Of a DNA stretch of 64,000 nt, positions 54 to 37,102 are shown in pieces; the first letter of the stretch is position 1; each line of letters starts with the position of its first letter. Where the stretch lies: positions 1,280,001 through 1,344,000 of the forward strand of contig OY970067.1 of the NCBI GenBank assembly GCA_963705305.1, given 5' to 3'. A program made the translations under genes and the position numbers. Under the pieces are notes generated by a model, which made no database searches, was not told where the DNA came from, and saw nothing but the letters and a program-made list of their open reading frames with translations. This DNA comes from an uncultured Methylomirabilota bacterium (GTDB lineage: Bacteria > Methylomirabilota > Methylomirabilia > Methylomirabilales > 2-02-FULL-66-22).

Positions 54-1334
54 GTGGACGAGACAGGTAATTATGCGCGACGCTGCAAGGCGATTGCACT
101 GCTGCGGCAGAGGGTCCGGTTCGCAGAGGTGGCTCGGGCGGTGGGCCGCAGCCAGAGCTGGCTGGCGAAGTGGTGGAGGCGCTGCCGTCAGGAAGGGCGG
201 GTGGGACTCCACGACCGGAGCCGGGCCGCGCACCGGATCTGGCGCCGGACCGCACCTCACTTGGTCAGCCTGGTGCTGCGGATTCGCGCGGAGCTGGTGG
301 CCCACCGGACGCGCCGGACGGCCTTTGCGGGTCGGGGCGCGGAGGCCATCCGCTGGGAGCTGGAGCAGCGCGGGGTGCACCGGCTGCCGAGCCTCCGGAC
401 GATCGAGCGGCTCCTGCAAGCGCACGGCTGTACCCGCCGCGAGCGGCGCCGTCGGCGCGGGCGGGGCCAGCCCTGTCCGGCGCCCCGGGCCGCAGCCGTG
501 GGGGCCGTGCAGCAAACGGACCTCGTCGGCCCGCGCCATGTCCGCGGCCCCCGCGGGGTTACCCGCTTCTTCGCCTTCCACACTCTGGAGTACGTCAGCC
601 GAGCGGCGGCCGCCAGCTACTATGGCGCCAAGGGGACCGAAGCCTTCTGTGCGCACTTCCTGCACGCGTGGACACTCCTGGGGGTCCCGGCCGTCAGCCA
701 ACTGGATAACGAGTTTGGCGTCGTCGGGGGCAACCCGTACGGGTTCACCTTCTCGCAAGTGGTGCGCCTGGGCCTGCTCTGCGGGGTCCACTGGTGGTTC
801 ATTCCCCCCGGCGAGCCCGGCCGGAACCCGGACATCGAGAGCTTCAACGGCCTCTGGCAAGCGCGGGTGCTCTGGCGGCACCGGTGCGCCGATCTCCCCG
901 CCGTGCGCCGCACGAGTGCGCGCTTCCTCCGGTACTACCACACCCGCAAACCGCATCGGCGCCTCACCGTCGCCACCCACGGCTCGCGGTTCCCGGGCGA
1001 GGTCCTGGCCGCCGCGCAGGCACTGCTTCGGCCGCTGCCCCCGGGGTTCGCCCTGGACCGCTACCGGGATGCCCGGGGGGCGCTCCACCTGCCCCTGGCC
1101 CGCGGCCGGATCTCCTTCGTCCGCCGGGTCGGCGACACGGGCACCATCGCGCTCCCCGGGGGCGCCTACCGGGTCGGGCGGCGCCTGGCCCGGCAGTATG
1201 TGGTGGCCACCCTCTACACGCATCGCCGCGAGATCGTCGTCAAACTGGACGGCCGAGTGGTCAAGCGCTTCTCCTGTCCGATCCACGAGCCGGTCGTCCT
1301 TCCCCTCTACCCGCTCCCGCGGGGGCGGTGCTGA
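54..1334 (+). CDS. IS481-family-like transposase (HTH + DDE integrase core)
   Basis: N-terminal HTH (AEVARAVGRSQSWLAKWWRR..GLHDRSR), PSLRTIERLL, DDE core QTD...QLDN...PGRNPDIESFN. Confidence 0.8.
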   Translation: MDETGNYARRCKAIALLRQRVRFAEVARAVGRSQSWLAKWWRRCRQEGRVGLHDRSRAAHRIWRRTAPHLVSLVLRIRAELVAHRTRRTAFAGRGAEAIRWELEQRGVHRLPSLRTIERLLQAHGCTRRERRRRRGRGQPCPAPRAAAVGAVQQTDLVGPRHVRGPRGVTRFFAFHTLEYVSRAAAASYYGAKGTEAFCAHFLHAWTLLGVPAVSQLDNEFGVVGGNPYGFTFSQVVRLGLLCGVHWWFIPPGEPGRNPDIESFNGLWQARVLWRHRCADLPAVRRTSARFLRYYHTRKPHRRLTVATHGSRFPGEVLAAAQALLRPLPPGFALDRYRDARGALHLPLARGRISFVRRVGDTGTIALPGGAYRVGRRLARQYVVATLYTHRREIVVKLDGRVVKRFSCPIHEPVVLPLYPLPRGRC

Positions 1335-1432
1335 GTCCCAGGAGCCCGCCCGCCGCGCTCGCTGCACCACACCGTTGGGCGTGCTGCTCGCTGCGGCGGG
1401 CTCTCCTGTGCCATGGGGAACGACCCCGACTG

Positions 1433-1489
1433 GTCTACGATGTTATGGCGGTCCACTGCCTCTGAAATCAGTCTACGATGTTGTGGCGG
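1433..1489. repeat. Tandem 19-bp imperfect direct repeats, probable subterminal transposase-binding sites of the IS481-like element
   Basis: gtctacgatgttatggcgg (1433-1451) and gtctacgatgttgtggcgg (1471-1489); partial inverted copy cgccattgcgtagac at 8-22. Confidence 0.6.
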
Positions 1490-1497
1490 CGCCCACC

Positions 1498-1841
1498 TAG
1501 GAGATTCCTCATCTTGGAAGTGGGTCCATGCTTCTTCACGGTGAGGCCCGTCAGTTCACCGCGCACCCGCTACGGCCGCGAGATCGTCAGGTGCGAGGCG
1601 TACAGCCCTCCGCCGCAGCAGTGCTCTGATCGCCCCAGGCGCCGTGCAGATATCCGTTTCCCGGAGGATCACGTGCTTGTACTGCATCGTAAAGCGTCAC
1701 CGCATCGCCTTGGCCACCACCTCGACCTCGTTTGTGTCTGGTTTTGGAACTGCCACCTAAAGCAGCGCAGTCATTTGCCAATGTCTCCCTCCCCTCTACT
1801 CTAAACTCTGAAGGGGGGAGTGTCTAACTCATACCGGCACA
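1498..1841 (-). pseudogene. IS3-family remnant (left end + degraded orfA)
   Basis: Minus strand begins TGTGCCGGTATGAGTTAGACAC; broken frames read PDTNEVEVVAKAMR*RFTMQYKHVILRE..CTAPGAIRALLR / LYASHLT..RGELTGLTVKKHGP, typical of IS3 OrfA. Confidence 0.7.
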
Positions 1842-1898
1842 GGGGGCGTTTTCATGCCGGATTCAGGTCAACTTAGCGGCAATCATCCCTTGTTTACC

Positions 1899-3542
1899 CT
1901 ATGCTATCTCCAGGCCAGCCCCCTTAGTCGCTGGCAAGGCGTGGACCTCCCATGCCCTGCAAATGCTGGTCCTCTTGGTCTTTAGCGGAGGCCGTCTCCA
2001 GTGGCTGAGCCGCCGTTTAATCTCCTCGTTATCGAGTTGTATGTTCAATATCCTTCCCTCAACATCAATCTCAATTAGGTCTCCGTCCTCCACTGCGGCG
2101 AGGGGTCCTCCCACCGCAGCTTCGGGGGTGATCTGCGTAATAACGGGCCCATACCCGCTGCCTCCGCTAACAGTGCCATCCGTCAGCATGAATACATGCT
2201 CGCGGCCCACCCCCACTCGATCCTCCATTTCCCGCATCACGTGCGGCATGCCCGGCCCGCCACGTGGCCCGACGTATCTCACGACAATAACGTCACCGCT
2301 TTTTACCTTTCCTTTAGTAATTCCATTCCAATACTCCGGGATGGAGTCAAAAACAACGGCGCGGCCCCGAAATTTCATCATGTCGGGAGGAGTGACCGAA
2401 TTTCGACATATGCCCGAAGTACACAAGTTGCCCCGCATGACGACTAGCGATTGCGCGAGGACCGGGTCGTTCACGGGGTGGATGACTTCGCTCCGACGCA
2501 CCCGTGCCCCCCTGATGTTTTCCCTCAGAGTTTTTCCTGTCACGGTCATCACATCGAGGTTTAGGTACCTCTCCCCCAGTTCATTCAGAACGGCCGGAAC
2601 GCCGCCGGCCTCATCGAAATCCGTGATCGTGTACTCCTTCTCCCCATACCCAGCGCCTCCAACCGGCGCGACATTCGTGATGACCGGGACCTCCTTGCTA
2701 ATTCTATCAAACGTCTCTATCGTGATCTCATCATCCAAATCCAGCTCTCTAGCCAACGCGAGCATGTGCCACACACAGTTCACGGATAGACCCATCGCGT
2801 TCATTAGCACGATCGCGTTCTCAAGTGCCGCCTTGGTCATGATGTCCCGCGGCCGGATATTCTTCTCCGCGAGTCGGACTATTTGCTTCCCCGATTCGTT
2901 GGCAATCCACTTCCTCTTTGTCGCAACAGTCGGGATGGTGGAAGCACGCGGGAGGGTCATACCGAGCCCTTCACTCAAGATTTGTATCGAGTTTCCCGAC
3001 CCGAAGCTGCCGCAGGTGCCGATCGTGCATTGCATACCGTGAAATTCACATATCGGGGACTCGTAGTCCTCATACCGTCCCTGCAATGCGGGGCCCGCAG
3101 GGACGATTATCGACGGGAAATTACATCGAGCCGCACCAAGCAAGAGGCCCGGTCCACTCTTGTCGCAGCCCCCCATGAAGACAAGACCGTTTTGAGACAT
3201 TTGCGCTATATTCTCTATTGATCCCGCAAGCACATCTCGTGTTACCGCGCCGTGCCAGGGGACGTCCTCGCCAGACACTTTGGACAGGCATCCGAGCGAC
3301 GGGGTGTTGTCGAGGCATTCCCCGTATACATTGTATTCAAATGGGACGCCGCCTGACGCCCAGATTCCCGCCCGAACAAACTCGGCAAGGCTCCGCAAAT
3401 CAATATGCGCCACATTGCCTTCGTTCCACGTGTTGATGATGGCAATATGCGGCTTCGTCTTGAGATCGTCCTCAGTATACCCCATGATCATCGCTAACGT
3501 AGTCCTTCGCAGACCGATCTTCTCTCCATCATGCGTGCCCAT
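1899..3542 (-). CDS. Dihydroxy-acid dehydratase (IlvD/Edd family)
   Basis: KPHIAIINTWNE..HIDL, GGCDKSGPG, GTCGSFGSGNS, AGGVPAVL, RYVGPRGGPGMP, TDGTVSG, ITPEAAVGGPLAAVEDGDLIEID. Confidence 0.9.
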   Translation of the reverse strand: MGTHDGEKIGLRRTTLAMIMGYTEDDLKTKPHIAIINTWNEGNVAHIDLRSLAEFVRAGIWASGGVPFEYNVYGECLDNTPSLGCLSKVSGEDVPWHGAVTRDVLAGSIENIAQMSQNGLVFMGGCDKSGPGLLLGAARCNFPSIIVPAGPALQGRYEDYESPICEFHGMQCTIGTCGSFGSGNSIQILSEGLGMTLPRASTIPTVATKRKWIANESGKQIVRLAEKNIRPRDIMTKAALENAIVLMNAMGLSVNCVWHMLALARELDLDDEITIETFDRISKEVPVITNVAPVGGAGYGEKEYTITDFDEAGGVPAVLNELGERYLNLDVMTVTGKTLRENIRGARVRRSEVIHPVNDPVLAQSLVVMRGNLCTSGICRNSVTPPDMMKFRGRAVVFDSIPEYWNGITKGKVKSGDVIVVRYVGPRGGPGMPHVMREMEDRVGVGREHVFMLTDGTVSGGSGYGPVITQITPEAAVGGPLAAVEDGDLIEIDVEGRILNIQLDNEEIKRRLSHWRRPPLKTKRTSICRAWEVHALPATKGAGLEIA

Positions 3543-25245: not shown

Positions 25246-26380
25246 GTGATCTGTAACAGAAATAGCTTTACAATCAGGTGCTGTATGTGTACAAGGGCTC
25301 ATGTTTACTCCAGCGCGGGCGCTCACGATCGACGAGAATCAGCGGAAGCGACTCCGGTTCCTGGCGAACTCGGGCAAGACACCGCAGAAGGTGGCCCTGC
25401 GGGCCCGGATCGTCCTGCTGGCCAGCGAGGGCGTCCCCAACAACGCCAGCGCGGCGCGGCTGGGCACCAGTCGCCCGACGGTGCTGCTGTGGCGGAGCCG
25501 GTTTCAGGCCCGCGGGGCGCCCGGGCTGCTGAAGGAGGCGCCGCGGCCAGGCCGCAAGAAGGCTCTCTCGCCTGCGGTCGTGAAGCGGGTGGTCGAGGCG
25601 ACCTTGCACAGTACCCCGCGGGGGGCGACGCACTGGAGCACCCGCACCCTGGCCAAGGCCCAGGGCCTCTCCCACATGACGGTCCAGCGGATCTGGAAGC
25701 AGCATGGGCTGCAGCCGCACCGGGTGGAGACTTTCAAGCTCTCCCGCGATCCCCACTTTGTCGAGAAGCTGCGCGACGTGGTGGGGCTGTACCTCGATCC
25801 GCCGGACCGGGCCCTGGTCCTGTCGGTGGACGAGAAGAGCCAAATCCAGGCCCTCGACCGGACCCAACCGGGGCTGCCGATGAAGCGGGGCCGCTGCGGC
25901 ACGATGACCCACGACTACAAGCGCCACGGGACCACCACCCTCTACGCGGCCCTCTGCCTGCTCGATGGCAAGGTCATCGGCCAGTGTCTGCCCCGGCACC
26001 GCAGCCAGGAGTTCCTCCGCTTCCTCCGTACCCTCGATCAGCAGACGCCGGCGGCCCTGGACCTGCATCTCATCGTGGACAACTACGGCACCCACAAGAG
26101 CCCCCCGGTCCAGCGCTGGCTCCACCGCCACCCGCGCTTCCATCTCCACTTCACGCCCACGGGCAGCTCCTGGCTCAACCTGGTCGAGCGCTGGTTCCGC
26201 GAGATCACCCAGAAGCGCATCCGTCGCGGCAGCTTCGCCAGCGTCAAGGAGCTCCTGGCCGCGATCCAGGAGTACCTCGATGAGTACAACCGCGCTCCCA
26301 AACGCTTCGTCTGGACCAAGAGCGCTGACATGATCATGACGAAGGTCGATCGTTGTAAAGCAGCGTTAGTTACACAACAC
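25246..26380 (+). mobile_element. IS630-family insertion sequence
   Basis: IRs gtgatctgtaac / gttacacaacac, each flanked by TA within CTAG. Confidence 0.88.
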
Positions 26381-26383
26381 TAG
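25301..26383 (+). CDS. IS630-family transposase
   Basis: VDEKSQIQAL, HDYKRHGTTTL, LIVDNYGTHK, FTPTGSSWLNLVERWF. Confidence 0.95.
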   Translation: MFTPARALTIDENQRKRLRFLANSGKTPQKVALRARIVLLASEGVPNNASAARLGTSRPTVLLWRSRFQARGAPGLLKEAPRPGRKKALSPAVVKRVVEATLHSTPRGATHWSTRTLAKAQGLSHMTVQRIWKQHGLQPHRVETFKLSRDPHFVEKLRDVVGLYLDPPDRALVLSVDEKSQIQALDRTQPGLPMKRGRCGTMTHDYKRHGTTTLYAALCLLDGKVIGQCLPRHRSQEFLRFLRTLDQQTPAALDLHLIVDNYGTHKSPPVQRWLHRHPRFHLHFTPTGSSWLNLVERWFREITQKRIRRGSFASVKELLAAIQEYLDEYNRAPKRFVWTKSADMIMTKVDRCKAALVTQH

Positions 26384-27603
26384 CTTCCCTCCCTTATCCT
26401 CTGCGCGCACCCGCGGCAGAGGTGTTCGGGAAGGCCAGCATGAACTGGGCATTGGTCCGGCGAACACGGGGACTCGTACCCGCAGAGGTACGCAAGGACC
26501 GTGCATCTATTCCCTCGCCAATTCCGACCCTGCAGGGGAGGGCACAGGTCCCGGATTCGGGAACCGCGGCGGAATACGCAGGTGTCGAAGGCCCGGGCAT
26601 TACACATCTCGGCCGCATACTCGAAGGACACGTCGAACTGTTCAAGGTAGGCCCCCTCCGGCAACCGCCGGTCGGCCTTCAGGGTATCGTGCCATTCGCG
26701 AAGCGTTCCGGGCAGCACAGGCCGGCCGAAGGCGTGCGTGAAGAAGAAACTGTTCCACACGTCTCCGGGGACTTCGAGCGCACTGAGCAGGGTGAGCCCG
26801 CCTCCCCGGAAATACTCGATGATGTCCTGACACCCTGTGGTCTGGAGGGCTGCCAGGAAGGGCGGCATGAGCGCACTGCCCGGCTTCACGTAGTCCCGGA
26901 ACGCCGCCCACACCCGCTTGAAGTACCGGTCGTCCGATGTCATCCAACGGCGGTACTCCCGCTCCAGCACGTGCGGAGAGCCGAAGAGGTCGGCTAATTC
27001 GCGATCCCTGGCATCGATGGCACTCGAGAAGGCAGTTGACCGGGAGGTGGGAAGCTTGTTGGAAGCGCTCCAGTACGTCAGGAGATAGAGCAGGTAGGCA
27101 ACTCGGTGTACCATATCGTCCCCACCGTGCTGGGCTGCGGCTCTCCAGAAGGCGGAATGGTCGGCAAGGTAGCGCATCACGTTCCGACCGTGGTGCGCGA
27201 GAGTGGCGAGCGTTGCGGCGATCGAGAAGAGGTGCATGGGGTAACGCGGCGCGACGCTGATCGGGTCCTGCCCATCCCGCTGGGTGAGGGAGGTGAGCAC
27301 GTCCACCTTCCGGTCCTTCTCGGCCGGGCGGGAGAAGGCGTGGAGGACCGCCAGTGGAGGCCGTCGCGCCTGCGCGTAGTCATGCACCAGTTCAGCGAGA
27401 ATGGGGCCACCTTTCTCCCACACCTGCTGATACGAGCGCTGGGCATCAAGGATGTAGCAGAGCCAATGGGTCAAGACCTGCTCGGCGGGGGGAAGGCGCT
27501 CAAAGACAGGGCCGGGGATCTGACTCTCCGTCCGGTACCAGCGAGCATGGTCTAGCCACGTGACGACCGGCCACATGTTCACCAAGACAGACGGGACTCT
27601 CAT
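26380..27603 (-). CDS. Hypothetical protein with Cys-rich C-terminus (possible HhH-GPD-like)
   Basis: 407-aa ORF with RBS ggagg; LTHWLCYILD, KRVWAAFRDY, LEVPGDVWN, multiple C-terminal Cys. Confidence 0.7.
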   Translation of the reverse strand: MRVPSVLVNMWPVVTWLDHARWYRTESQIPGPVFERLPPAEQVLTHWLCYILDAQRSYQQVWEKGGPILAELVHDYAQARRPPLAVLHAFSRPAEKDRKVDVLTSLTQRDGQDPISVAPRYPMHLFSIAATLATLAHHGRNVMRYLADHSAFWRAAAQHGGDDMVHRVAYLLYLLTYWSASNKLPTSRSTAFSSAIDARDRELADLFGSPHVLEREYRRWMTSDDRYFKRVWAAFRDYVKPGSALMPPFLAALQTTGCQDIIEYFRGGGLTLLSALEVPGDVWNSFFFTHAFGRPVLPGTLREWHDTLKADRRLPEGAYLEQFDVSFEYAAEMCNARAFDTCVFRRGSRIRDLCPPLQGRNWRGNRCTVLAYLCGYESPCSPDQCPVHAGLPEHLCRGCAQRIREGS

Positions 27604-27836: not shown

Positions 27837-29006
27837 TCAATTCGACACGGGATGAGCTCGCAGCCACTGATCGAGGGTGGTCGGCGGAGGAACCGTCGGC
27901 AGCCGGAGCAGCCGTGCATACCGATCGATGACCGATGCGCTGGGATCGACGATTGTCGTCCGCGCAGGCACGCAGGCAGTCAACAAGAGCGTCCATACCG
28001 CCGCATCCGCTGGCGGCAGGCTATACCCCACGATCACCGTTTCCTCTGCCGCACGTAGTGCGTCAGCCGCTTTCTTCCACAACCTTCGGAACACGGTGTT
28101 GCCGCTCTCCTCGCCGCCGTAGTCCTTTAGGAAGCTTGGATGAAGCAGAGTCTGGTCTTGGTCGGAGGGTCGTTCCGGCATTGAGGCATCGACCAGGGAG
28201 ATGTCGAGCGCCTGCAGGAACAGCGGGTCGAGAGAGATCTCGGTGCCAAGCGGTGCCGGCGAGAGCGCCTCGCGCGGCAGCGGTCCACCGCCTGCCGCCA
28301 CTGTCGCGCCAGGGCGAAGGTGAGGCTTGCGGTACCATCCCGCGGCCCCGTGCAGGTGCAAGACCTTTACCGCGGACTGCGGAAGCGCGACCGGCGTAGC
28401 AGTACACCTAGGATCGCAGAATACGAGTGTGGTCCCGTAGCCGTCTCTTGCCGACCACTTGCCTTGATGTAGAAGAGCCCGCTCAATGGTCGAGTCGTAG
28501 TTGAATGTGACGACGACATCGCCTGCGGCGAGTCTTTGCCCAAGACTCTGTAGCGCCATCCAGTCGGACGCCCCGTAGCGACCTCGGTCCTCTTCATGTC
28601 GATGTTGGAAATAGGCCTCCATTGCCCAGAGTAGAATCCGCCGGGTCCTCCGGTATTCCTCAATGTCAGGCGTCAGGCGATCGTAATTGGCTTCCGCAGC
28701 TGCGACATCGCCGGGGCCTTGCCTGCTTGCTCTCAGGATGTTGAGCAGCGCCTCATCGCCCAGGAAGTGAGCGAAGTCCAAGGCAGTGAAGATTTGTTCC
28801 AGGTTTCCGCTCCGATACGCCTCGCGAAGCAGCGGGTTGCCATTGCGCTGTAGCCATCCCAGTGTTGCCGGCCAGTCCGCATCGTATTGAAAGCGGTCGA
28901 AACACCTTTCGCAGCTCCGGACGTACCCGTCAATGGATTCGAGCAGCTGTCCGCCGAGCGGGTAGATCGGAAACGATGCTCCGGCTCCAAGGACATAGGT
29001 CCGCAT
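27837..29006 (-). CDS. SIR2-like domain protein
   Basis: YVLGAGAS, VVTFNYD, VLHLHGAAGW, IVGYSLPPAD. Confidence 0.85.
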   Translation of the reverse strand: MRTYVLGAGASFPIYPLGGQLLESIDGYVRSCERCFDRFQYDADWPATLGWLQRNGNPLLREAYRSGNLEQIFTALDFAHFLGDEALLNILRASRQGPGDVAAAEANYDRLTPDIEEYRRTRRILLWAMEAYFQHRHEEDRGRYGASDWMALQSLGQRLAAGDVVVTFNYDSTIERALLHQGKWSARDGYGTTLVFCDPRCTATPVALPQSAVKVLHLHGAAGWYRKPHLRPGATVAAGGGPLPREALSPAPLGTEISLDPLFLQALDISLVDASMPERPSDQDQTLLHPSFLKDYGGEESGNTVFRRLWKKAADALRAAEETVIVGYSLPPADAAVWTLLLTACVPARTTIVDPSASVIDRYARLLRLPTVPPPTTLDQWLRAHPVSN

Positions 29007-29046
29007 TTGGGCCTCCGGGGTGATCGGCAAGAGAGCTACAAGCTTC

Positions 29047-29970
29047 TCATCCGCCAACCCTTGTCGTCCCGACATACTCCGCGCCTTGAGCGATCGCGGC
29101 CCCGATGTGGCGGAATGCCTCCTGACCGAGCGCGAGGGGATGGACGTTTACCTGGACGGCAAGGGTAAAACGGTCCGCCGTCCGATCCAGCGCGATTGTG
29201 TTAACATGGAAGAGCGCGCCGACAATTAGGCCGTCCTTGGCAACGTCGAGGAGCGCCGCTTTCGTTGTTTCCTGTTCCGAGATCGCGAGGAGCATCCGGC
29301 TCAACCCCTCGGAGGCGCGGTGCTCGTCATAGTAGCCGAGGAAGCTGTCCCCCGGATTCAAGACCCGCGCGACGGAGACCGCGATCAAGCCGAAGGCTCC
29401 TGGCGGTCTGGAGGGGATCTGCCGCTTGAGTTGGGCGTGGGCTTGCTTGATGGCCCGGTCAACGCCGGTTGCCGCGAACGGACGCTTGCATTCGATGAGG
29501 ATCTCGGCCACGCCCAACCGGCAGGTTAGATCGGGATGCTCGCCAAGCTCGACGGGCAGGCCGCCCGCTGCGATCCGCGATGCCAGGTAGAGTTCGAACA
29601 GGGTGTTTCGTGCAGCATTGGTACTACTGGCGTTTTCGTCAGCGAGGAGCGGAGGACCACTCAATACAATCTCAAGCTTGCGCCGCAGGGCCTCGGGATT
29701 CACGTTCCGCAGTTGCTCCAGCGCCTCCGCAAACTCGAGCCCTTCGATCAGGGCCGTCGCGAAATGAACTTGATCATTATGGAGTCGCTCCGCCCTCTGT
29801 GGCGGGATGTCGTTGACGTTGCCGGGCTCGATCAACGAAATCAACTCCTGGATCTTCCGCCGGTGTTCGCTGAACCTGCCACGGCCTACAAGGTCGGCCA
29901 GCCCCACGGAGCGGCAGACTTCAGAAGCCCGGTCGAGCTTGTCCAACACATCCTGAAACCGAATAGGCAT
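29047..29970 (-). CDS. PD-(D/E)xK restriction-endonuclease-like protein
   Basis: NTLFELYLA...HPDL...ILIECKRP. Confidence 0.6.
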   Translation of the reverse strand: MPIRFQDVLDKLDRASEVCRSVGLADLVGRGRFSEHRRKIQELISLIEPGNVNDIPPQRAERLHNDQVHFATALIEGLEFAEALEQLRNVNPEALRRKLEIVLSGPPLLADENASSTNAARNTLFELYLASRIAAGGLPVELGEHPDLTCRLGVAEILIECKRPFAATGVDRAIKQAHAQLKRQIPSRPPGAFGLIAVSVARVLNPGDSFLGYYDEHRASEGLSRMLLAISEQETTKAALLDVAKDGLIVGALFHVNTIALDRTADRFTLAVQVNVHPLALGQEAFRHIGAAIAQGAEYVGTTRVGG

Positions 29971-30042
29971 AGTCTCGTTCCTTGCACCGTCATTACGCCG
30001 ATGTCGCGCCCTGCGCAAGTTGATTCTGCTATTCCGCCTGCC

Positions 30043-30399
30043 TCAGGAGAGAAGCGGCAGGCCCTTCGGGGTCATCGCGTCTAGGATGGGGTGCGTCAGG
30101 AATGCGAAGCCGAGGGAAATCAATAGACGCTTTTGATTCGATTCGATGTCGGGGCGTTGCCACAAGCGGCGGAGGCCGGCGGCGGCAGCGAAGTTCAAAG
30201 CGAGTCCATGGACTAGCGCCCGATGGTTCGGATGAACGGCGGGCTCAAGCACGTCAGGCAGGCAAGCCAGCGCAGCCCCGGCCGCGATAGCGACCAAGAA
30301 TTCCCCAAGAGTCGGCTGTTCGTCTGCCATCTTGCAGAAACCCAGATATGCGACGCCGCCGACTGCGGCGCCTGCTACCGCGTGTCCCGATCTGTTCAC
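30043..30399 (-). CDS. Membrane-bound metal-dependent hydrolase (YdjM-like)
   Basis: GH near the N-terminus, ACLPDVLEP...HRALVHGL, THPILDAMTPKGLP, hydrophobic segments; GTGA overlap with the upstream gene. Confidence 0.8.
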   Translation of the reverse strand: MNRSGHAVAGAAVGGVAYLGFCKMADEQPTLGEFLVAIAAGAALACLPDVLEPAVHPNHRALVHGLALNFAAAAGLRRLWQRPDIESNQKRLLISLGFAFLTHPILDAMTPKGLPLLS

Positions 30400-31238
30400 A
30401 ATGCGGCCTCCTTCGCGGCTGCCCTGTCCTTTGCAGCACAGCAATGGCCATAGCTCTTGCCTGATCCGCACCGGCAGGGATCCTTGGAACCGAGGAATCG
30501 CAAGATTTCGGACGGCTCGTGGCCGACCACACTGCCTGGCCAGGCTTCTTCAATCCCGACACCGCGCTCCCGCGCCTCGACCCACGCCAAGTGCTTCCCG
30601 AGCCAAATAGCGGTGTAGTTTGCGTATTCGCGGACTCCACGCAGTGGCCATGTCCAGGCTCTATCGGCGGGGAAGAGGACGCAGAGGGCGTCGATGTCGT
30701 TGAGCATATGCGGGGGCGGTCCGCTCGGATGTTGGTGGTCAATCCGGGGCCACAGTGACCGTGCGATGGGACAGCCGGGTGGTCGCCGATATGCAATCTC
30801 GATCCGGAAGCCGCCCGCCAAGAGGCGCCCGAGGCGGAGTGCCGGACGTGGGAAATGTTCCCCTCCGCACTGCTCGTAGTGAGCGAGCGCCCCATCCGTC
30901 ATGACCCGGACAGGACGATCTTCATCCAAGTCTGCCACGATGGCCTGGATCTCCTCTAGATCCATCCCTTCGGGAAACGGGGTGATCGTGCCCCGCCAAG
31001 CGAGCACGAATTCCCCGCATTGTACGCGCTCGACCGCCTCTCGCGGAGTCTGGGGCTCTTCCTGACCGATGCAATCGCGACCCAAGGCGACGGCATGGAT
31101 GATTCTCTGCGGGTCGCGGTGACGACGCCGCACGATTGAAGTGAAAGATGGGTAGGCTGAGTGCATGGCGGTGACCTCCCGCTCCCACCAGGGGGTCAGC
31201 AGTTCAATTTCCCACGGGTTGAGCGGGAGGTTGGCCAT
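30396..31238 (-). CDS. Prokaryotic E2/UBC-fold protein with C-terminal SEC-C motif
   Basis: WEREVTAMHSAYPSF, LAWRGTITP, FRIEIAY..PP..P, PH...LCVLFP..W, WL..H..W...WPG...H, DPCRCGSGKSYGHCC; RBS gaggtg. Confidence 0.7.
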   Translation of the reverse strand: MANLPLNPWEIELLTPWWEREVTAMHSAYPSFTSIVRRRHRDPQRIIHAVALGRDCIGQEEPQTPREAVERVQCGEFVLAWRGTITPFPEGMDLEEIQAIVADLDEDRPVRVMTDGALAHYEQCGGEHFPRPALRLGRLLAGGFRIEIAYRRPPGCPIARSLWPRIDHQHPSGPPPHMLNDIDALCVLFPADRAWTWPLRGVREYANYTAIWLGKHLAWVEARERGVGIEEAWPGSVVGHEPSEILRFLGSKDPCRCGSGKSYGHCCAAKDRAAAKEAAL

Positions 31239-31248
31239 GTCATCCACC

Positions 31249-31368
31249 TCACCAGGTTCCATGCGGCCGAGGTGGGTGGACAACTCCGCCGGGCGGCTCC
31301 GGTCGCGGCGGGTGCTGCGGGTGGGGCGGATGGGGGTGCGGATGCTCCTGGTGATCGTCCTTCGACAT
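31249..31368 (-). CDS. 39-aa His/Pro-rich peptide (not in the ORF track)
   Basis: MSKDDHQEHPHPHPPHPQHPPRPEPPGGVVHPPRPHGTW; RBS aaggag 6 nt before ATG; stop 10 nt before the E2-like start. Confidence 0.7.
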   Translation of the reverse strand: MSKDDHQEHPHPHPPHPQHPPRPEPPGGVVHPPRPHGTW

Positions 31369-31464
31369 TTCAGACTCCTTCTGTGCTGAGCCCCTCCCCG
31401 GCGACGGGCCCCGTTTCGATGATGGATGCCGGGCTCCAGTATCGTGTACGGGAATTTCTCGCGT

Positions 31465-31493
31465 ATGATAATTCTTGCACGTGACACAGTCAA
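31465..31493 (-). promoter_or_regulatory. Sigma70-type promoter for the peptide-E2 operon
   Basis: Minus strand TTGACT-N17-TATCAT; CACGTG palindrome in the spacer. Confidence 0.65.
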
Positions 31494-31566
31494 GGAGTAA
31501 TTTCTTGTCGGCGAGAATGACAGGACGTTGCGGAATATAGCCGCCTCGCGGCTAAAGGAGGTCTGC

Positions 31567-31956
31567 ATGCCGGAAGGCATCGACGTGGGGCAGTTGGGCG
31601 ATCGACTCAGGCGAGTCCGAACCGAACGGCGACTGACATTGCGAGAGGTCGCAGGGGCGACGGGTATCAGTATCCCTTCACTCTCACGGATCGAGCGTGG
31701 TGCGGCCAAGGAATTCAAGAGCGGAACGCTGCTTAGCCTTGCGCAGTGGTTGGGGACCAACCTGAATGACTTGACGGGCTCGCCCTCTCCCGTCACGCGC
31801 CGCCACGGTAAGATCGTCGAAGCGACTCCCGACGTGGTGGAACTGCATCTCCGCGCGGACAAGAAGCTGAACAAGAAGAGCGCTACCGCCCTCGCGAACC
31901 TGTTTCGCACGGCGTACGAACAGCTAGCCAAGACGGGTGACAAGGAAGAGCCGTGA
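31567..31956 (+). CDS. XRE-family HTH transcriptional regulator
   Basis: LGDRLRRVR..RRLTLREVAGATGISIPSLSRIERG; RBS aaggagg. Confidence 0.9.
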   Translation: MPEGIDVGQLGDRLRRVRTERRLTLREVAGATGISIPSLSRIERGAAKEFKSGTLLSLAQWLGTNLNDLTGSPSPVTRRHGKIVEATPDVVELHLRADKKLNKKSATALANLFRTAYEQLAKTGDKEEP

Positions 31957-32547
31957 TGTTCCTGCCGTTTAGTGAGCGAGGCAAGCGGTGGGAACCGGTC
32001 GGGCTTCGCCTGCGTCGACTGGCGGGTGTCCGACTCGCGGACCCTTTGGATCCGTGGCTCCTCGCCGGCAAGGTCGGTCTGACGGTTGTTGATGCGCGTC
32101 CTTTCCTGGCAAACCTGCCGGTGGAGGAGCGGGAGCAACTGATCTCAGACGGCGGGTGCTGGTCAGGCGGGATCTTCCCCGTCGCCTTGCCCAACGGTTC
32201 CCGTCTTTGCATGCTGAACCCGAAGCACAACAGGCATCGACAGAAGATCACCCTGATGGAGGAGATCACCCACACCCATCTTCAACATGTGCCCTCTCGG
32301 CTTGCGTACAGTTCAGCGGCTCTCCGGGTGCGGGACTTAGATCCAGAGCAGGAGGCGGATGCCTACGGGATTGGCGCAGCAGCGCTACTCCCGTGGTCGA
32401 CTTTCTTTCCTGCGGTGAACGACGGCCAAACCGTCGAGGAACTTGCGGCAGAATACGGTGTGTCTGAGGAATCTGGTCACCTATCGCATCAAGATCACGG
32501 GAGCGTTTCACCTTTACCGCTCCCGTCAACGCAAGGCACCGATCTGA
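31956..32547 (+). CDS. ImmA/IrrE-family metallopeptidase (apparent +1 frameshift near 32471)
   Basis: LNPKH..HRQKITLMEEITH...QEADAYGIGAAALLP...LAAEYGVSE; the natural tail LVTYRIK... is in the next frame and ends at 32547. Confidence 0.8.
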
Positions 32548-32942
32548 CCTGCGGTTGCCGCCGTTGCCCCGCGGGATCCAAACTGGGGCAAGACGCCCGA
32601 TTGCCTTAGGCGGTGGATCGTTCACGCGGTCACCCTTCCGGGAGCTCGTTTCAGAGCGCCGGGCGGATCCCGATACTGGCTGGATATGGCCAACGCCAAA
32701 TTATGGCCACTTCGTTGTCTCCGTCGGAGCTTTGTGGTACAAGCACAGGCAAACGAAAAGTCGTGGCGGAGGAGCCCAGAGAGATTGAGGGCAGGTTCGG
32801 AGGGTCGGTGCTCTTCGTACTGGACAAGATGTTCAGCACGGGACCGACGTCACACGCGCCTCATGGCTCCTCCCAACAAATAGAGATGTGGCCCATCGGC
32901 TTCCGGGTGGAGGAAGGTGGCCACCAGTACGAAAGATAGGAA

Positions 32943-34451
32943 ATGCCCATACTGACTTGGCTCGATCGGGAAACCGCCATGAAAGCTGCGGAGGCCGTGC
33001 CCTACCGCGTTCTCGACCTCGATCCGAAGCTTTCGGCCGACGACCCTTCCGCCGAAAACCTTATCATCCAGGGCGACAACCTCGAAGCCGTCAAAGCAAT
33101 CATGCCGTACTTCGCCAGCCGCGTGAAATGCTTCGCCATTGACCCGCCCTACAATACCCGGAGCGCCTTCGAGCACTACGACGACAGCCTCGAACACTCG
33201 ACCTGGCTCTCCATGATGTATCCCCGCCTCGAACTCATGCGCGACCTGCTCGCCGAGGACGGATCAATTTGGGTCTGCATAGACGACAACGAGGCTCACT
33301 ACCTGAAAGTCATCATGGACGAAGTCTTCGGGAGGAAGAACTTCATCGCCGAGATCATTTGGCAGAAGCGAACATCACGGGAAAACCGGGCCGCGATCGG
33401 CTCTGCCCATGACACCATTCTGGTCTATGGCCGGATGGAAGCGAAGGCATGGAAGGACCACAGGAACCTTCTACCCGGCACAGGCAAAGGCTACGGTAAT
33501 CCCGACGACGACCCACGTGGCCCATGGCGTTCGATCCCGTTCTCGGCACAGGGCTACCGAATCAATCAGATGTACGAGATCGAGACGCCATCCGGCAAGA
33601 TTGTGTCCCCACCGAAGGGCCGCTGCTGGGGAGCCACGGAACCGGTCTACATAGACTACAAGAAGGCCAACCGCGTCTACTTCCCAAACGATGGATCGGG
33701 ACGCCCCCGAATCAAACAGTTTGAGAACGAAGAGAAGGGCCTTGTCCCGATGTCAATCTGGATGGCCGCTGACGCGGGTGACACAGAGGAGTCGAAGAAA
33801 GAGATTCTCACCCTCTTCGATGAGGAAAGCCCGTTCGGGACCCCCAAGCCCGAGCGCCTCCTTAGGCAGATCATCACTATCGCCACGAATCCAGGCGACA
33901 TCGTGTGCGACCCGTTTCTCGGCTCCGGCACCACGGCTGTGGTGGCTCATAAGATGGGCCGCCGCTACATCGGCGTGGAGATGGGCGAGCAGGCGGTCAC
34001 GCACTGCGTGCCGCGCCTCAAGAAGGTCATCGACGGCGAACAGGGCGGCATCTCCAAGCTCGTCAACTGGCAGGGCGGCGGCGGGTTCCATTTCGCGCGT
34101 CTCGGTCCCCCGATCTTTACTCCCGATGGCGCCATTCATCCGGACATCCGCTTCCCGACCCTCGCCGCGCATATCTGGTTCTCGGAAACCCGGACAGCCT
34201 GGCCCGGCAAGGGCGATTCCCCGTGTCTCGGCAAGCACAACGGCACGGCCTACTACCTGCTTTTCAACGGCATTCTCGGCGACAAGCGTCCGCTCGCTGG
34301 CAATGTGTTGAACACCTTGACGTTCCGCCAGCTGCCCCCGCACGCCGGCCCGAAGATCGTGTTCGGCGAGGCGTGCCAGTGGGGGGCGGACCGCCTCCAC
34401 CGTGAGAACATCGAATTCCGAAAGATTCCGCATGGGCTGAGAGTGCGATGA
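32943..34451 (+). CDS. mod: Type III restriction-modification methyltransferase subunit
   Basis: NLIIQGDNL, IDPPYNT, TPKPERLL, DPFLGSGTT. Confidence 0.92.
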   Translation: MPILTWLDRETAMKAAEAVPYRVLDLDPKLSADDPSAENLIIQGDNLEAVKAIMPYFASRVKCFAIDPPYNTRSAFEHYDDSLEHSTWLSMMYPRLELMRDLLAEDGSIWVCIDDNEAHYLKVIMDEVFGRKNFIAEIIWQKRTSRENRAAIGSAHDTILVYGRMEAKAWKDHRNLLPGTGKGYGNPDDDPRGPWRSIPFSAQGYRINQMYEIETPSGKIVSPPKGRCWGATEPVYIDYKKANRVYFPNDGSGRPRIKQFENEEKGLVPMSIWMAADAGDTEESKKEILTLFDEESPFGTPKPERLLRQIITIATNPGDIVCDPFLGSGTTAVVAHKMGRRYIGVEMGEQAVTHCVPRLKKVIDGEQGGISKLVNWQGGGGFHFARLGPPIFTPDGAIHPDIRFPTLAAHIWFSETRTAWPGKGDSPCLGKHNGTAYYLLFNGILGDKRPLAGNVLNTLTFRQLPPHAGPKIVFGEACQWGADRLHRENIEFRKIPHGLRVR

Positions 34452-37102
34452 AAGACATCAAGTACCAGCAAGACACGCTCACCGTCCTTCAAGAATACCT
34501 CTCCCTCGCCCGGACCTCCGCGCCAAGTGCAGCGTTCGAGGCCGCCACCGCGGGCCTCCCCTCTGCCTTGCGCCGCGAGTACATTGCCCTGAGCGATGCC
34601 GTGGCCGATGCCCCGTACGTTTGCCTCCGCCTTCCCACCGGCGGCGGCAAGACCCTCCTCGCCGCGCTCGCCATCTCTATTGCGGGTAAGGAGTTCCTCG
34701 ACCAGGACTTCCCCCTCGTGGTCTGGCTGGTGCCCACGAAAACGATCCGCGACCAGACGATCAAGGCCCTTCAAACGCCCGGCAACATCCATCACGACGC
34801 ATTGGAAGAACGCTTCAAGGGCCGCTTTCGCGTTCTGGCCGTCACGGATTTTGACCAGCTTCGCCCCCACGACCTCGGCGCCCGCGCCAACATCATCGTC
34901 AGCACGCTTGCCACCGCCCGCGTTGACAACACTGAACTCCGGAAGGTGTACGCGCACAACGAGAACATGGAATCGTTCTTCTCCGGGATCCCGGATACGA
35001 CACCGGACCTCGAACGCGACGAGAAGAAGAAGGGGAAGCCCATCAAGTTCTCCTTCATCAACCTGCTTCACCTGTGTCGCCCGCTCGTGATCGTGGACGA
35101 GGCCCACAACAACACGTCCGATCTCAGCACCGAGGTCATGGGCCGCATCCGCCCGTCCTGCGTCATCGAATTCACGGCTACTCCGGCAGCGAACAGCAAC
35201 ATTCTCTACCACGCGTCCGCCGGCGACCTGTACGCGGCCAGCATGATCAAGCTGCCCATCGAACTCACCCAGCACGCGACGTGGCAGGAGGCCGTCCACA
35301 GCGCCGTCCAGGAGCGTCAGAAGCTCGCGGAACTCGCCCCGAAGGAGAAGGACTACGTCCGCCCCATCACGCTCATCCAGGCCGAGAGCATCGACAGGGA
35401 AGTCACGTGGCAGTTCGTTCTGGATTACCTCCAGAATGAGGAGAGCATCCCGCGCGAGAAAATCGCCGTCGCCACCGGCACGGAGCGCGAACTCGACGGC
35501 ATCAACCTCTTCTCCCAGCAGTGCCCAATCGAACACGTCATCACGGTCAAAGCCCTCAAGGAGGGCTGGGACTGCTCCTTCGCCTACGTCTTCTGTTCCG
35601 TGGCAACCGTGCACTCGAAAACCGAGGTCGAGCAGATTCTCGGCCGCGTGCTACGCATGCCCTACGCCGAGCGGCGGTCACAACCTGCGCTCAATCGGGC
35701 CTATGCGCACGTTTCATCCACGAGCTGGCCCTACGCCGTGCAGCAGATGCGCGACCGCCTCGTGGACATGGGCTTCGATGAAATAGAAGCCGAGGAGGCC
35801 ATCCGCGAACAGCGCCCGAAGCCGATCCTGCAACTTGGCCTTCAGTACCCTATGACCGACTCGACCGCCGGCTTCCCGCTCTTCGACTTCACCGTCCGGG
35901 AGTCCCCGGACCTGACCATCCTCGAACCGGAAGAGCAAGGCTACATCACAGTCCACCAGCAGGAGGACGGCGCCACGACCCTGTCCGTGGACGAGAATAT
36001 CCCGGAATCGGCCCTACGGAAGGTCGAGAAGCAACTCCAGCCCAGAGAGCGCAACGCTCTCCGCGAAACGCTCGCCATCCGCCGCCGCCAGCGCCAGCGC
36101 GACCAGGCTCCCGTCCGCAAAGGCAAGACCTTCATCGTTCCGCGACTGTGCCGCACGATCCAGGGCGAGCTTGAGATTGTCGAACAGGATAATCTCATCG
36201 GCCCCGAGGGCTGGGACCTCGCCGACTATCCAGCCGTCCTCACATCGGACGAGTTCTCCACCGAAGTCGAAGCGAAGCGCTACGAGATTGGCATTGAAGG
36301 CAAGCGCGTCGTGGAACGGTACCTCGGCGCCCAGATGACCCTCGACCTGAAACACATGGAAGAGCCGTGGACCGAGGACTACCTGATCGGGTGGCTCGTC
36401 CGCCACATCGAGGAGTCCCACGTCGCCGATTTCCAGGACATCAAGCAGGTCGCCCTCCGCGCCTTCGTGCGGCGCGTCTTACGGTACCTTACCTGCGACC
36501 GCGGGCTCACGCTGGCCGATCTCCAGCGTTACGCCTTCTCTTTGCACAAAGCCATTGACCAGAAGATCGGCCAGCATCGTGACGCCGCGTTCCACAAAGG
36601 GTTCCAACAGCTTCTTGCCCTTCCCGCCGCGGAAGTCCGCACGTCCTTCGACTACACCTTCGAGTTTCCGCCTGACGGCTACCAACCCCACGGGTACTAC
36701 CAGGGAAGCCGCCGGTTCACCAAGCACTTCTACCCCGAGGTCGGCGAACTGGACCACAAGGGGGAGGAGTTCGATTGCGCCATTGCCATCGACGAATGCT
36801 TCGAGGTCGAGTGCTGGGTTCGCAACCTCGACCACGGCCCGTCCGCCTACAACCTTCCCGTCCCCTCCGGCCGATTCTTCCCTGACTTCGCCGCCAAGCT
36901 CACTGACGGACGGATCATGCTCATCGAGTACAAGGGCGAACACCTCGAAGCCAAAGCCAGCGAGCAGGCAAAAAGAGACATCGGCCGTCTCTGGGAGGAC
37001 CGCAGCGCCGGCAAAGCCCTCTTCCTTTGGGCCGTCAACCAAGACGCCGTCGGCCGCGCCGTCTCGGGCCAACTCAAAGCCAAGGTCGCAGGTTCTCCAT
37101 GA
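34448..37102 (+). CDS. res: Type III restriction endonuclease subunit (SF2 helicase + nuclease)
   Basis: PTGGGKT, VDEAH, TATP, LKEGWDC, QILGRVLR, FFPDF...IEYKG; ATGA overlap with mod. Confidence 0.9.
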   Translation: MKDIKYQQDTLTVLQEYLSLARTSAPSAAFEAATAGLPSALRREYIALSDAVADAPYVCLRLPTGGGKTLLAALAISIAGKEFLDQDFPLVVWLVPTKTIRDQTIKALQTPGNIHHDALEERFKGRFRVLAVTDFDQLRPHDLGARANIIVSTLATARVDNTELRKVYAHNENMESFFSGIPDTTPDLERDEKKKGKPIKFSFINLLHLCRPLVIVDEAHNNTSDLSTEVMGRIRPSCVIEFTATPAANSNILYHASAGDLYAASMIKLPIELTQHATWQEAVHSAVQERQKLAELAPKEKDYVRPITLIQAESIDREVTWQFVLDYLQNEESIPREKIAVATGTERELDGINLFSQQCPIEHVITVKALKEGWDCSFAYVFCSVATVHSKTEVEQILGRVLRMPYAERRSQPALNRAYAHVSSTSWPYAVQQMRDRLVDMGFDEIEAEEAIREQRPKPILQLGLQYPMTDSTAGFPLFDFTVRESPDLTILEPEEQGYITVHQQEDGATTLSVDENIPESALRKVEKQLQPRERNALRETLAIRRRQRQRDQAPVRKGKTFIVPRLCRTIQGELEIVEQDNLIGPEGWDLADYPAVLTSDEFSTEVEAKRYEIGIEGKRVVERYLGAQMTLDLKHMEEPWTEDYLIGWLVRHIEESHVADFQDIKQVALRAFVRRVLRYLTCDRGLTLADLQRYAFSLHKAIDQKIGQHRDAAFHKGFQQLLALPAAEVRTSFDYTFEFPPDGYQPHGYYQGSRRFTKHFYPEVGELDHKGEEFDCAIAIDECFEVECWVRNLDHGPSAYNLPVPSGRFFPDFAAKLTDGRIMLIEYKGEHLEAKASEQAKRDIGRLWEDRSAGKALFLWAVNQDAVGRAVSGQLKAKVAGSP

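Follow-up and report, generated by a model that had tools for sequence, protein, structure and literature searches.

What does a 39-codon open reading frame (ORF) do when it is the first gene behind a promoter and is followed, within a few nucleotides, by the gene for an E2-like enzyme? The locus in question lies on the minus strand of contig OY970067.1 from an uncultured Methylomirabilota bacterium (assembly GCA_963705305.1). The window is the whole stretch of 64,000 nucleotides (nt) that was analysed (contig positions 1,280,001 to 1,344,000), and positions below count from its first letter. An earlier note on this DNA had drawn attention to the micro-ORF and offered four readings of its product: a Pup-like tag cleaved at HG|TW, a precursor similar to those of ribosomally synthesized and post-translationally modified peptides (RiPPs), a metal-binding peptide, or a polyproline leader that stalls ribosomes. 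Our analysis points to the micropeptide as a processed substrate or tag of its neighbour, an enzyme of the type found in E2-only cyclic oligonucleotide-based antiphage signalling systems (E2-CBASS); we give this reading a probability of about 0.55.

A micropeptide under selection

The micro-ORF is present on the minus strand at 31249..31368, with its ATG at 31368..31366 and its TGA at 31251..31249. The 39 amino acid (aa) product, MSKDDHQEHPHPHPPHPQHPPRPEPPGGVVHPPRPHGTW, contains the HP units, the two HPPRP units, the internal G27-G28 and the G37 two residues from the end to which the earlier note had pointed. The strong ribosome binding site that it had claimed is there too, and its statement that the micro-ORF is the first gene after the promoter holds: the promoter is the only sigma-70-like site within 31000..31700 (shuffled DNA averages 0.2), and between it and the micro-ORF there is no ORF with a comparable ribosome binding site. 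The elements that matter most, with the evidence for each, are:

31249..31368, minus strand: micro-ORF, 39 aa plus stop, with a variable His/Pro-rich N-part and a conserved C-terminal tail (reading, conservation, ratio of nonsynonymous to synonymous differences, pN/pS)
31375..31380, minus strand: Shine-Dalgarno (SD) sequence AAGGAG, 6 nt 5' of the micro-ORF ATG (sequence)
31465..31493, minus strand: sigma-70-like promoter TTGACT-17-TATCAT, divergent from an XRE gene (10 of 12 matches)
31258..31281, minus strand: conserved tail codons V30-G37, V-H-P-P-R-P-H-G (alignment, codon use, predicted interface)
31252..31257, minus strand: T38-W39, the variable part after the Gly (alignment)
30396..31238, minus strand: E2-CBASS-type E2-like protein, 280 aa, with a C-terminal SEC-C motif (profiles, fold comparison)

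By length alone the micro-ORF is not significant, because as many as 72 ORFs that reach 30 aa or more overlap with 5 kb of this GC-rich DNA. That count is what favours regarding it as a chance ORF in a GC-rich 5' untranslated region. To set against this there are 23 close relatives of the E2-like protein in a 90%-clustered collection, and DNA was obtained for 21 related loci. Two of these (L010 and L021) came without the upstream region, which leaves 19 loci assessed for the micro-ORF. They amount to 15 distinct loci (L005 equals L006, L014 equals L015 and L016, and L017 equals L020), and to 16 distinct peptides when the window is included. Exactly one micro-ORF was found in the same position in 19 of 19 loci, and each of these peptides ends V-x-P-P-R-[PT]-[HF]-G plus one or two residues. 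The earlier note had named conservation of the C-terminal motif across loci as a check on its proposal, and the motif is thus kept in all 19. The micro-ORF persists even where the E2-like protein is only 26-32% identical to that of the window (for example, MAEKEKNNEQGHSGEHRQDGNHRQDEKHRPPEHRVKPPRPFGS).

When the 16 distinct peptides were aligned, M1, V30, P32, P33, R34 and G37 were invariant and P35 was nearly so, and position 36 was either His or Phe. The N-part varies in sequence and length (peptides of 32-52 aa), yet it remains His-rich and charged, and the His-rich composition is retained in both clades, including the distant relatives. HPP and PPG runs occur in the close clade; they are absent from the distant clade, in which V-K-P-P-R-P-F-G is kept. 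An SD-like GGAG or GAGG run precedes the ATG in 15 of 15 loci with sequence upstream. Pro is encoded by up to four codons per position, Arg by both CGN and AGG, and Gly by four codons, and length changes among the micro-ORFs stay in frame. In the ORF frame pN/pS is 0.14 (11 loci, 15 codons, 55 pairs) or 0.22 (16 loci, 8 codons, 120 pairs), and in the two other frames it is 2.9-4.3; the pairs are not independent, which leaves the contrast between frames unaffected. Because conserved residues use many synonymous codons and pN/pS is low only in the ORF frame, the peptide sequence is under selection. The conservation in 19 of 19 loci, the SD-like runs and the low in-frame pN/pS place the micro-ORF above chance. 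With position, start, SD, frame and tail conserved in 16 distinct loci, the comparative data contradict a chance ORF, to which we assign a negligible probability.

The ATG with which the E2-like gene begins follows the micro-ORF stop at a distance of 10 nt (there is also a GTG, at 1 nt), and the 280-aa form that starts at this ATG is the version found in public sources. The distance from stop to start is 1-10 nt in every locus read. A programmed frameshift joining the two genes was considered and rejected, because their relative frame differs between clades: it is +1 in the close clade, but the distant loci, each with an ATG of its own, have 0 or +2. In one locus, L001 from an alphaproteobacterial metagenome-assembled genome (G251:C39:64539-65211), the E2-like gene is split over three frames with the micro-ORF intact; the split gene is a pseudogene or an assembly error.

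The earlier note had called the micro-ORF unannotated, and in fact four of the four micropeptides that we looked up are missing from a collection of 15 billion proteins in which the 280-aa neighbour is present. The E2-like frame is open far upstream (580 aa, 30396..32138, minus strand), as a spurious frame running through the micro-ORF region. In several public homologues (P0002, P0004, P0006-P0008, P0010, P0014, P0016 and P0024) gene callers have set the start of the E2-like ORF further upstream, so that it reads through the micro-ORF out of frame (...IRSTRRGLSRP...). The micro-ORF is hidden from annotation because the upstream start translates its region in the wrong frame. Since gene callers either miss the micro-ORF or stretch the E2-like ORF over it, existing annotations of these operons are systematically incomplete.

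The E2-like neighbour and its other partners

The 280-aa enzyme appears to belong to PF26395, the family of E2-CBASS E2 proteins, or to stand close to it. This family is carried by 18 of the 23 homologues (precomputed assignments) and is named E2-CBASS in the Atlas, where the neighbours of the 280-aa protein are named Type II CBASS E2/SEC-C. The E2 models of PADLOC match the protein weakly (E 9e-5 and 2e-4). An AF2 model of it has a predicted local distance difference test score (pLDDT) of 79 and a predicted template modelling score (pTM) of 0.81, and among the best 50 VIA rows for this model all are UBC, UEV or RWD folds. The leading matches were the TSG101 UEV domain 2f0r_A (Z 8.1, root-mean-square deviation (rmsd) 3.0 Å, 122 residues aligned), the Serratia marcescens CdnG-E2 structure 8hsb_B (Z 8.1, rmsd 3.9 Å, 137 aligned) and the Vps23 UEV domain (Z 7.9, rmsd 4.2 Å, 135 aligned). 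UFC1, E2S, BubCD (9eav_D, Z 6.1, rmsd 3.4 Å, 109 aligned) and Cap2 (7to3_A, Z 6.0, rmsd 3.6 Å, 119 aligned) rank below TSG101 and 8hsb_B. Foldseek returned nothing at E ≤ 0.001 for this first model (best E 0.08), though nearly all matches were UEV or E2 proteins. With a second family member, whose core has a pLDDT >90, the top two Foldseek matches were SmE2 8yjy_B (E 9.5e-3) and 8hsb_B (E 1.3e-2). A sequence search of the PDB with the family profile retrieved SEC-C motifs only (SecA, YchJ) and no sequence-level relative of the UBC core. On these models, the neighbour has a predicted UBC/E2 fold whose nearest solved relative is the E2 of Serratia E2-CBASS.

Cys186 (codon 30683..30681), Pro176-His177 (His177 codon 30710..30708), His120/Cys124/His128, Lys215-His216 and His240 are invariant in 17 sequences. 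In a wider set Cys186 is again invariant (10 of 10) and His177 nearly so. The enzyme thus has a conserved Cys with a nearby His, C186 and H177, the putative counterparts of C101 and H87 of SmE2. His120, Cys124 and His128 form an invariant H-x3-C-x3-H that is distant from the Cys186 loop, and its residue pattern could mean that the protein has a second metal site in addition to the SEC-C motif.

With 779 representatives (50% identity, E ≤ 1e-3) the family is large, yet it is sparse among genomes. Of 251 genomes from the phylum of the window, 2 have a true homologue (G075, G216 and G217 count among those without one); other matches in these 251 genomes reach only the SEC-C end of SecA-like frames of ~900 aa. 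Elsewhere true homologues occur in 4 of 401 genomes of the phylum of L002 and in 1 of 401 genomes in the class of L001, which is the seed itself. No relative of the E2-like protein was found in plasmid and phage records (tblastn) or in viral contigs.

The precedent for what such an enzyme can do comes from Serratia. As described in the available parts of a preprint (bioRxiv 10.1101/2022.05.25.493364), SmE2 has no E1 and is a Cys protease that cuts off the residue that comes after Gly406, the conserved C-terminal Gly of its partner, a CD-NTase (nucleotidyltransferase of the cGAS/DncV-like type). It then forms a Gly406-Cys101 thioester followed by an isopeptide to Lys159 or to further cGAS, and two His residues stand near its Cys. 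Its main product, according to the same parts, is a self-linked, inhibited complex of E2 and partner. The accessible portion of a later paper (mLife 2026, PMC12948482) describes the Gly as highly conserved among E2-CBASS partners.

The conserved tail of the micropeptide is found on other proteins next to the same enzyme family. In L057 a sub-threshold SMODS/DncV-like (CD-NTase-like) protein (523-1422; E 2e-4) ends ...VPRPTFGSDE and directly precedes the E2-like gene (1423-2220). In L058 a DUF3892 protein (812-1174) ends ...RSHGVHGNWELL, and the E2-like gene is at 1174-2010. Moreover, 7 of the 148 representatives listed carry the tail as an in-frame fusion N-terminal to the E2-like domain (for example, ...GRVIHPAPTHG), where it stands behind a coiled coil, a DUF3892 domain or low-complexity stretches rich in Pro or in His/Asp/Arg. 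Tail-bearing members include P0065, P0054 and P0113, and the shared form is P-R-P-x-[FH]-G. An eighth match to the regular expression, P0155, was discarded; its motif lies inside the C-terminal part. As the same motif ends unrelated proteins that are beside or fused to one enzyme family, the tail works at the protein level. The E2-like family seems, on this comparison of sequences, to serve several kinds of partner, since the tail ends CD-NTase-like and DUF3892 proteins and is also fused to the E2-like domain.

These tails bear on the polyproline leader of the earlier note, in which pausing at PPG/PPR or at the stop merely sets the rate of E2-like translation and the peptide is a by-product. 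Polyproline motifs depend on elongation factor P (EF-P), and the close clade has HPP and PPG runs. The stop-to-start distance of 1-10 nt in every locus suits such a role. In the minimum-energy fold of the leader RNA the H-P-P-R codons can pair with the SD-like run GAGGTGG before the E2-like ATG (31241..31275, minus strand); with such a pairing, E2-like translation would hinge on the micro-ORF being translated. Yet the tail also ends full-size proteins, and in the seven fusions a leader is impossible. The distant clade lacks PPG and HPP runs and still keeps V-K-P-P-R-P-F-G, and the N-part has stayed His-rich to a degree that a motif for the exit tunnel would not demand. Shuffled sequences fold as well as the leader RNA (z -0.38), and no terminator was found within 31000..31700. 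With only 1-10 nt between stop and start as well, a classical terminator leader is excluded. As the main role of the micro-ORF we find stalling in cis highly improbable, and this proposal of the earlier note is not supported; coupling and peptide function can coexist.

Predicted docking and the proposed fate of the peptide

Complex prediction for the peptide with the E2-like protein gave a score of 0.84, and the best of three controls gave 0.05. The runs scored 0.84, 0.62 and 0.84, and contacts agree in at least 42%. The score mark is reached by 116 of 157 solved complexes and by 2 of 215 mismatched pairs, a calibration that is rough since custom alignments were used. The predicted interface on the peptide comprises residues 26-37, exactly the conserved block. 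On the E2-like protein the predicted contacts are 104, 107-114, 119, 121, 176-179, 186-189, 192, 194-195, 207-208, 211-212, 235-240, 245 and 256, so that the interface spans a strand edge and the regions of the invariant His177, Cys186 and His240. The prediction supports binding of the peptide to the E2-like protein, and its passing of the controls is a further point against a leader that acts only in cis.

From these elements a course of events can be proposed. The micro-ORF would be translated into a peptide of ~39 residues that is predicted to be intrinsically disordered, and with 1-10 nt from stop to start it would be translationally coupled to the E2-like gene. In the model, residues 104-114 of the E2-like protein gain an extra strand from the tail V30-H-P-P-R-P-H-G37 (then T-W), which goes on into the pocket of the invariant P176-H177, C186 and G235-H240. 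By analogy with SmE2 and CdnG, the enzyme would cut after G37, releasing TW, hold the peptide as a G37~Cys186 thioester and pass it to a Lys on the enzyme, on another peptide or on a target, with neither E1 nor ATP needed. The peptide would thus occupy the place of the CD-NTase in E2-CBASS, with a recognition tail joined to a variable His-rich, charged, low-complexity part, and could be a minimal substrate or tag that has no beta-grasp fold. Cleavage, thioester, Lys transfer and induction after DNA damage are modelled on the known systems. Of the four readings in the earlier note, the evidence speaks most for cleavage of a tag at HG|TW, once modified in this way: the neighbour is an E2-CBASS-type E2, and the Gly is conserved together with the one or two residues after it.

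Several observations weigh against a processed substrate or tag. Both the translation of the micro-ORF and the covalent chemistry are steps that we infer, and an acceptor lysine or target is only putative; the peptide of L009 contains no Lys. A search for RNA records over 30400..31960 turned up DNA contigs only, with small shares. The peptide pLDDT in the complex is only 45-55, one of the runs fell to 0.62, and the lowest-error pairs listed do not include a contact between G37 and C186. The pass in complex prediction may partly reflect likeness rather than binding, because a solved CdnG-E2 complex exists. The fold matches are middling, at Z 8.1 and Foldseek E values no better than ~0.01. In the AF2 model of the natural fusion P0113 the whole N-part, including the tail, has a pLDDT of 41-49 and is not docked in cis. 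SmCdnG is described (PMC12948482) as also depending on a structured helix/sheet element (residues 352-398) for recruitment of its E2, and in the micropeptide this element has no counterpart. Beside the E2-like gene of L056 no recognisable partner ORF was found. Lastly, the only Gly-less micro-ORF (1044-1142; MADEKEQKDKDKDKDKHHPPRPVPQPTQHPQR), which ends ...PTQHPQR, is that of L023, a locus from the one further genome in the phylum of the window that has a true homologue.

This last locus also bears on an alternative in which the peptide only binds. It would then be a pseudosubstrate that is not transferred, a plug or a small subunit, never conjugated to targets, and the E2-like protein would be a UEV-like binder of proline peptides or a protease whose pocket the peptide occupies; the peptide might also regulate the action of the enzyme on other substrates or on cargo proteins. 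The E2-like protein of L023 (1150-1977) keeps Cys186, but His177 is replaced by Gln and His240 by Gly. A Pro-rich peptide that has lost its Gly is thus retained beside an enzyme that has lost His177 and His240, a co-variation with n=1 that also counts in favour of the processed substrate or tag; from their sequences the two could be a co-degenerated, binding-only pair, in a single case. The UEV domains of TSG101 (Z 8.1) and Vps23 (Z 7.9), binders of PTAP and PSDP by their PDB titles, are among the top folds, complex prediction yields docking and not chemistry, and the main product of SmE2 is, in the parts of the source available, itself a self-linked and inhibited complex. On the other side, every aligned member has Cys186 (17 of 17 and 10 of 10), a constancy that mere binding would not call for. 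Gly37, too, is invariant, with four different Gly codons in use, and is followed by a short variable overhang, like the processed Gly of E2-CBASS partners. We therefore consider binding alone rather unlikely.

In a further alternative, the E2-like protein is a maturation protease only, and the peptide is set free to act elsewhere, whether by chelating metal, as a RiPP-like product or as a proline-rich peptide that binds ribosomes. The His-rich composition conserved in both clades speaks for it, as does the protease activity of the E2-CBASS enzyme in the available parts of its description (bioRxiv 10.1101/2022.05.25.493364). On the other hand, a cut at G37 removes just one or two residues, a trivial maturation, and the conserved part of the peptide is the part that docks on the enzyme in the model, with the remainder highly variable (32 to 52 aa). 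Among the operon proteins no family of RiPP maturases (YcaO, radical SAM, Lan and similar) or exporters was detected, two cargo proteins having no family at all; the RiPP-like precursor of the earlier note is not supported. A general resemblance to proline-rich antimicrobial peptides may be a further lead in the direction of a released peptide. We judge a released peptide very unlikely.

Returning to the peptide as a processed substrate or tag, a broader proposal can be built on it. The locus may encode a two-gene peptide-tagging system, in which an E1-independent E2-type Cys transpeptidase cuts a disordered tag of 30-50 residues, free of a beta-grasp fold, behind its conserved Gly and writes it, singly or as chains, onto phage or host proteins, and in which tagging itself would be the DNA-damage-induced defence where there is no further cargo. 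We regard this proposal as tentative and put it at less than even odds.

Genomic setting and known systems

The micro-ORF locus is a defence island. The genes around the micro-ORF and the E2-like gene are:

30043..30471, minus strand: YdjM-like membrane protein, variable cargo, shared only with L004 (PF04307, E 1e-8)
29047..30018, minus strand: 323-aa protein, variable cargo, no family match (Pfam)
27837..29075, minus strand: 412-aa protein, variable cargo, sub-threshold SIR2-like (SIR2_2 E 0.0013, below cut-off; PADLOC SIR2 E 4e-4)
26380..27603, minus strand: 407-aa protein, no family match (Pfam), operon membership uncertain (234-nt gap)
25301..26383, plus strand: DDE_3/HTH transposase, IS630-like by Pfam domains, directly after the last cargo gene
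31567..31956, plus strand: XRE-family helix-turn-helix (HTH) regulator, CapH-like, divergent from the micro-ORF (HTH_31 E 2.5e-12; capH E 4e-4)
31953..32609, plus strand: ImmA/IrrE M78 metallopeptidase, CapP-like (PF06114 E 4e-9; capP E 2.8e-5)
32943..37102, plus strand: type III restriction-modification pair, Mod of 502 aa and Res of 884 aa, beyond the XRE/ImmA genes

As in CapH/CapP-like pairs, genes for an XRE HTH protein and an M78 metallopeptidase adjoin the operon. An HTH and/or M78 gene was found upstream in 10 of the 15 distinct loci. In L002, L003, L005 and L008 both domains were detected, each in a gene of its own, and in L014 and L017 the two are fused. Only the M78 part was detected in L007, L011 and L012, and in L009 Pfam gave the HTH and tblastn the M78. 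A pair of ORFs upstream in L001 matched nothing, and the scan left out L004, L013, L018 and L019. The cargo of the window is not shared with other loci, except for the YdjM-like gene in L004. Elsewhere we found an HNH nuclease (L014) and a nucleoside hydrolase with a metallophosphatase (L002), and L005, L008, L011 and L017 have no same-strand cargo. The 323-aa and 407-aa proteins and the downstream ORFs of L009, L023 and L057 had no Pfam match even at E ≤ 1. As the cargo differs between loci while the regulators and the E2-like gene recur, the core is the regulator pair, the micro-ORF and the E2-like gene.

CapH/CapP-like regulators are reported beside operons of ubiquitin-related genes in the available parts of a preprint (bioRxiv 10.1101/2022.04.27.489752), which is also the source for their regulatory mechanism and for induction by DNA damage. 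By analogy, the divergent XRE/ImmA pair probably switches the module on after DNA damage.

The transposase is consistent with a mobile or rearranged edge of the island. In L017/L020 a Mod gene 38-40% identical to that of the window, with the start of Res, lies beside the distant module (205..1917, minus strand); the presence of Mod/Res next to both modules is a recurring neighbourhood or shared defence-island traffic.

Should processing and conjugation of the peptide be real, E2-type enzymes could mark proteins by means of a mere peptide tail, with no need of E1, ATP or a ubiquitin fold. This would bear on the origin of ubiquitin-like signalling and would add a compact DNA-damage-induced module to bacterial defence systems. 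If the two-gene tagging proposal also holds, no smaller ubiquitin-like conjugation system would be known, and the locus would offer a plausible picture of E2-based tagging from before ubiquitin-like (Ubl) domains and E1 enzymes. The hypothesis is cheap to test: the His-rich peptide should let conjugates be recovered on metal-affinity resin.

Pup is a small disordered tag without a beta-grasp fold that has a functional C-terminal GGQ/GGE end and is handled by the enzymes PafA and Dop. The micropeptide resembles the tag of the actinobacterial Pup/PafA system in being small, disordered and free of a beta-grasp fold, with a C-terminal end that would be functional. Unlike in that system, its enzyme is a UBC-fold Cys enzyme and not a glutamine-synthetase-like ligase, and the peptide ends HGTW. 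No PafA or Dop family was found among the operon proteins, and the peptide is not a member of the Pup family. A beta-grasp ubiquitin-like modifier (~70 or more residues) was also rejected, the peptides being of 32-52 aa, of low complexity and with a pLDDT of 45-55. The Bil/Bub operons share with this locus a defence-island setting, UBC-fold enzymes and CapH/CapP-type regulators; they encode an E1, a beta-grasp Ubl and a deubiquitinase, whereas the family scan of the operon here found none of these. The UEV domains of TSG101 and Vps23 likewise pair a UBC fold with a short proline-rich peptide (P(T/S)AP or PSDP), a likeness at the level of fold and PDB titles, but UEVs have no catalytic Cys, which is invariant here.

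The closest comparison is with E2-CBASS (type II, E2 only; Serratia CdnG-E2, PDB 8hsb/8yjy). The E2-like protein falls in or next to PF26395, SmE2 is its nearest solved fold, and in both systems the partner gene lies immediately upstream and ends in a conserved Gly plus very few residues. Neither has an E1 or a JAB protein, the family scan having found no such family in the operon here. The partner, in contrast, is a disordered peptide of 32-52 aa here and a CD-NTase of ~400 aa there, and the peptide is without the helix/sheet recruiting element. The E2-like protein here has a C-terminal SEC-C motif and a longer N-terminus. Furthermore, conservation of the tail V-x-P-P-R-P-[HF]-G is strong here, whereas the mLife paper (PMC12948482) describes the tails of CdnG as variable in sequence. 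The family scan detected no cyclase and no cyclic-nucleotide effector in the operon, and because no operon protein has a SMODS/CD-NTase family, the micro-ORF system is not CBASS. In the literature covered, to which subscription journals do not belong, we found papers on E2-CBASS and on CapH/CapP and none on a micropeptide paired with such an E2.

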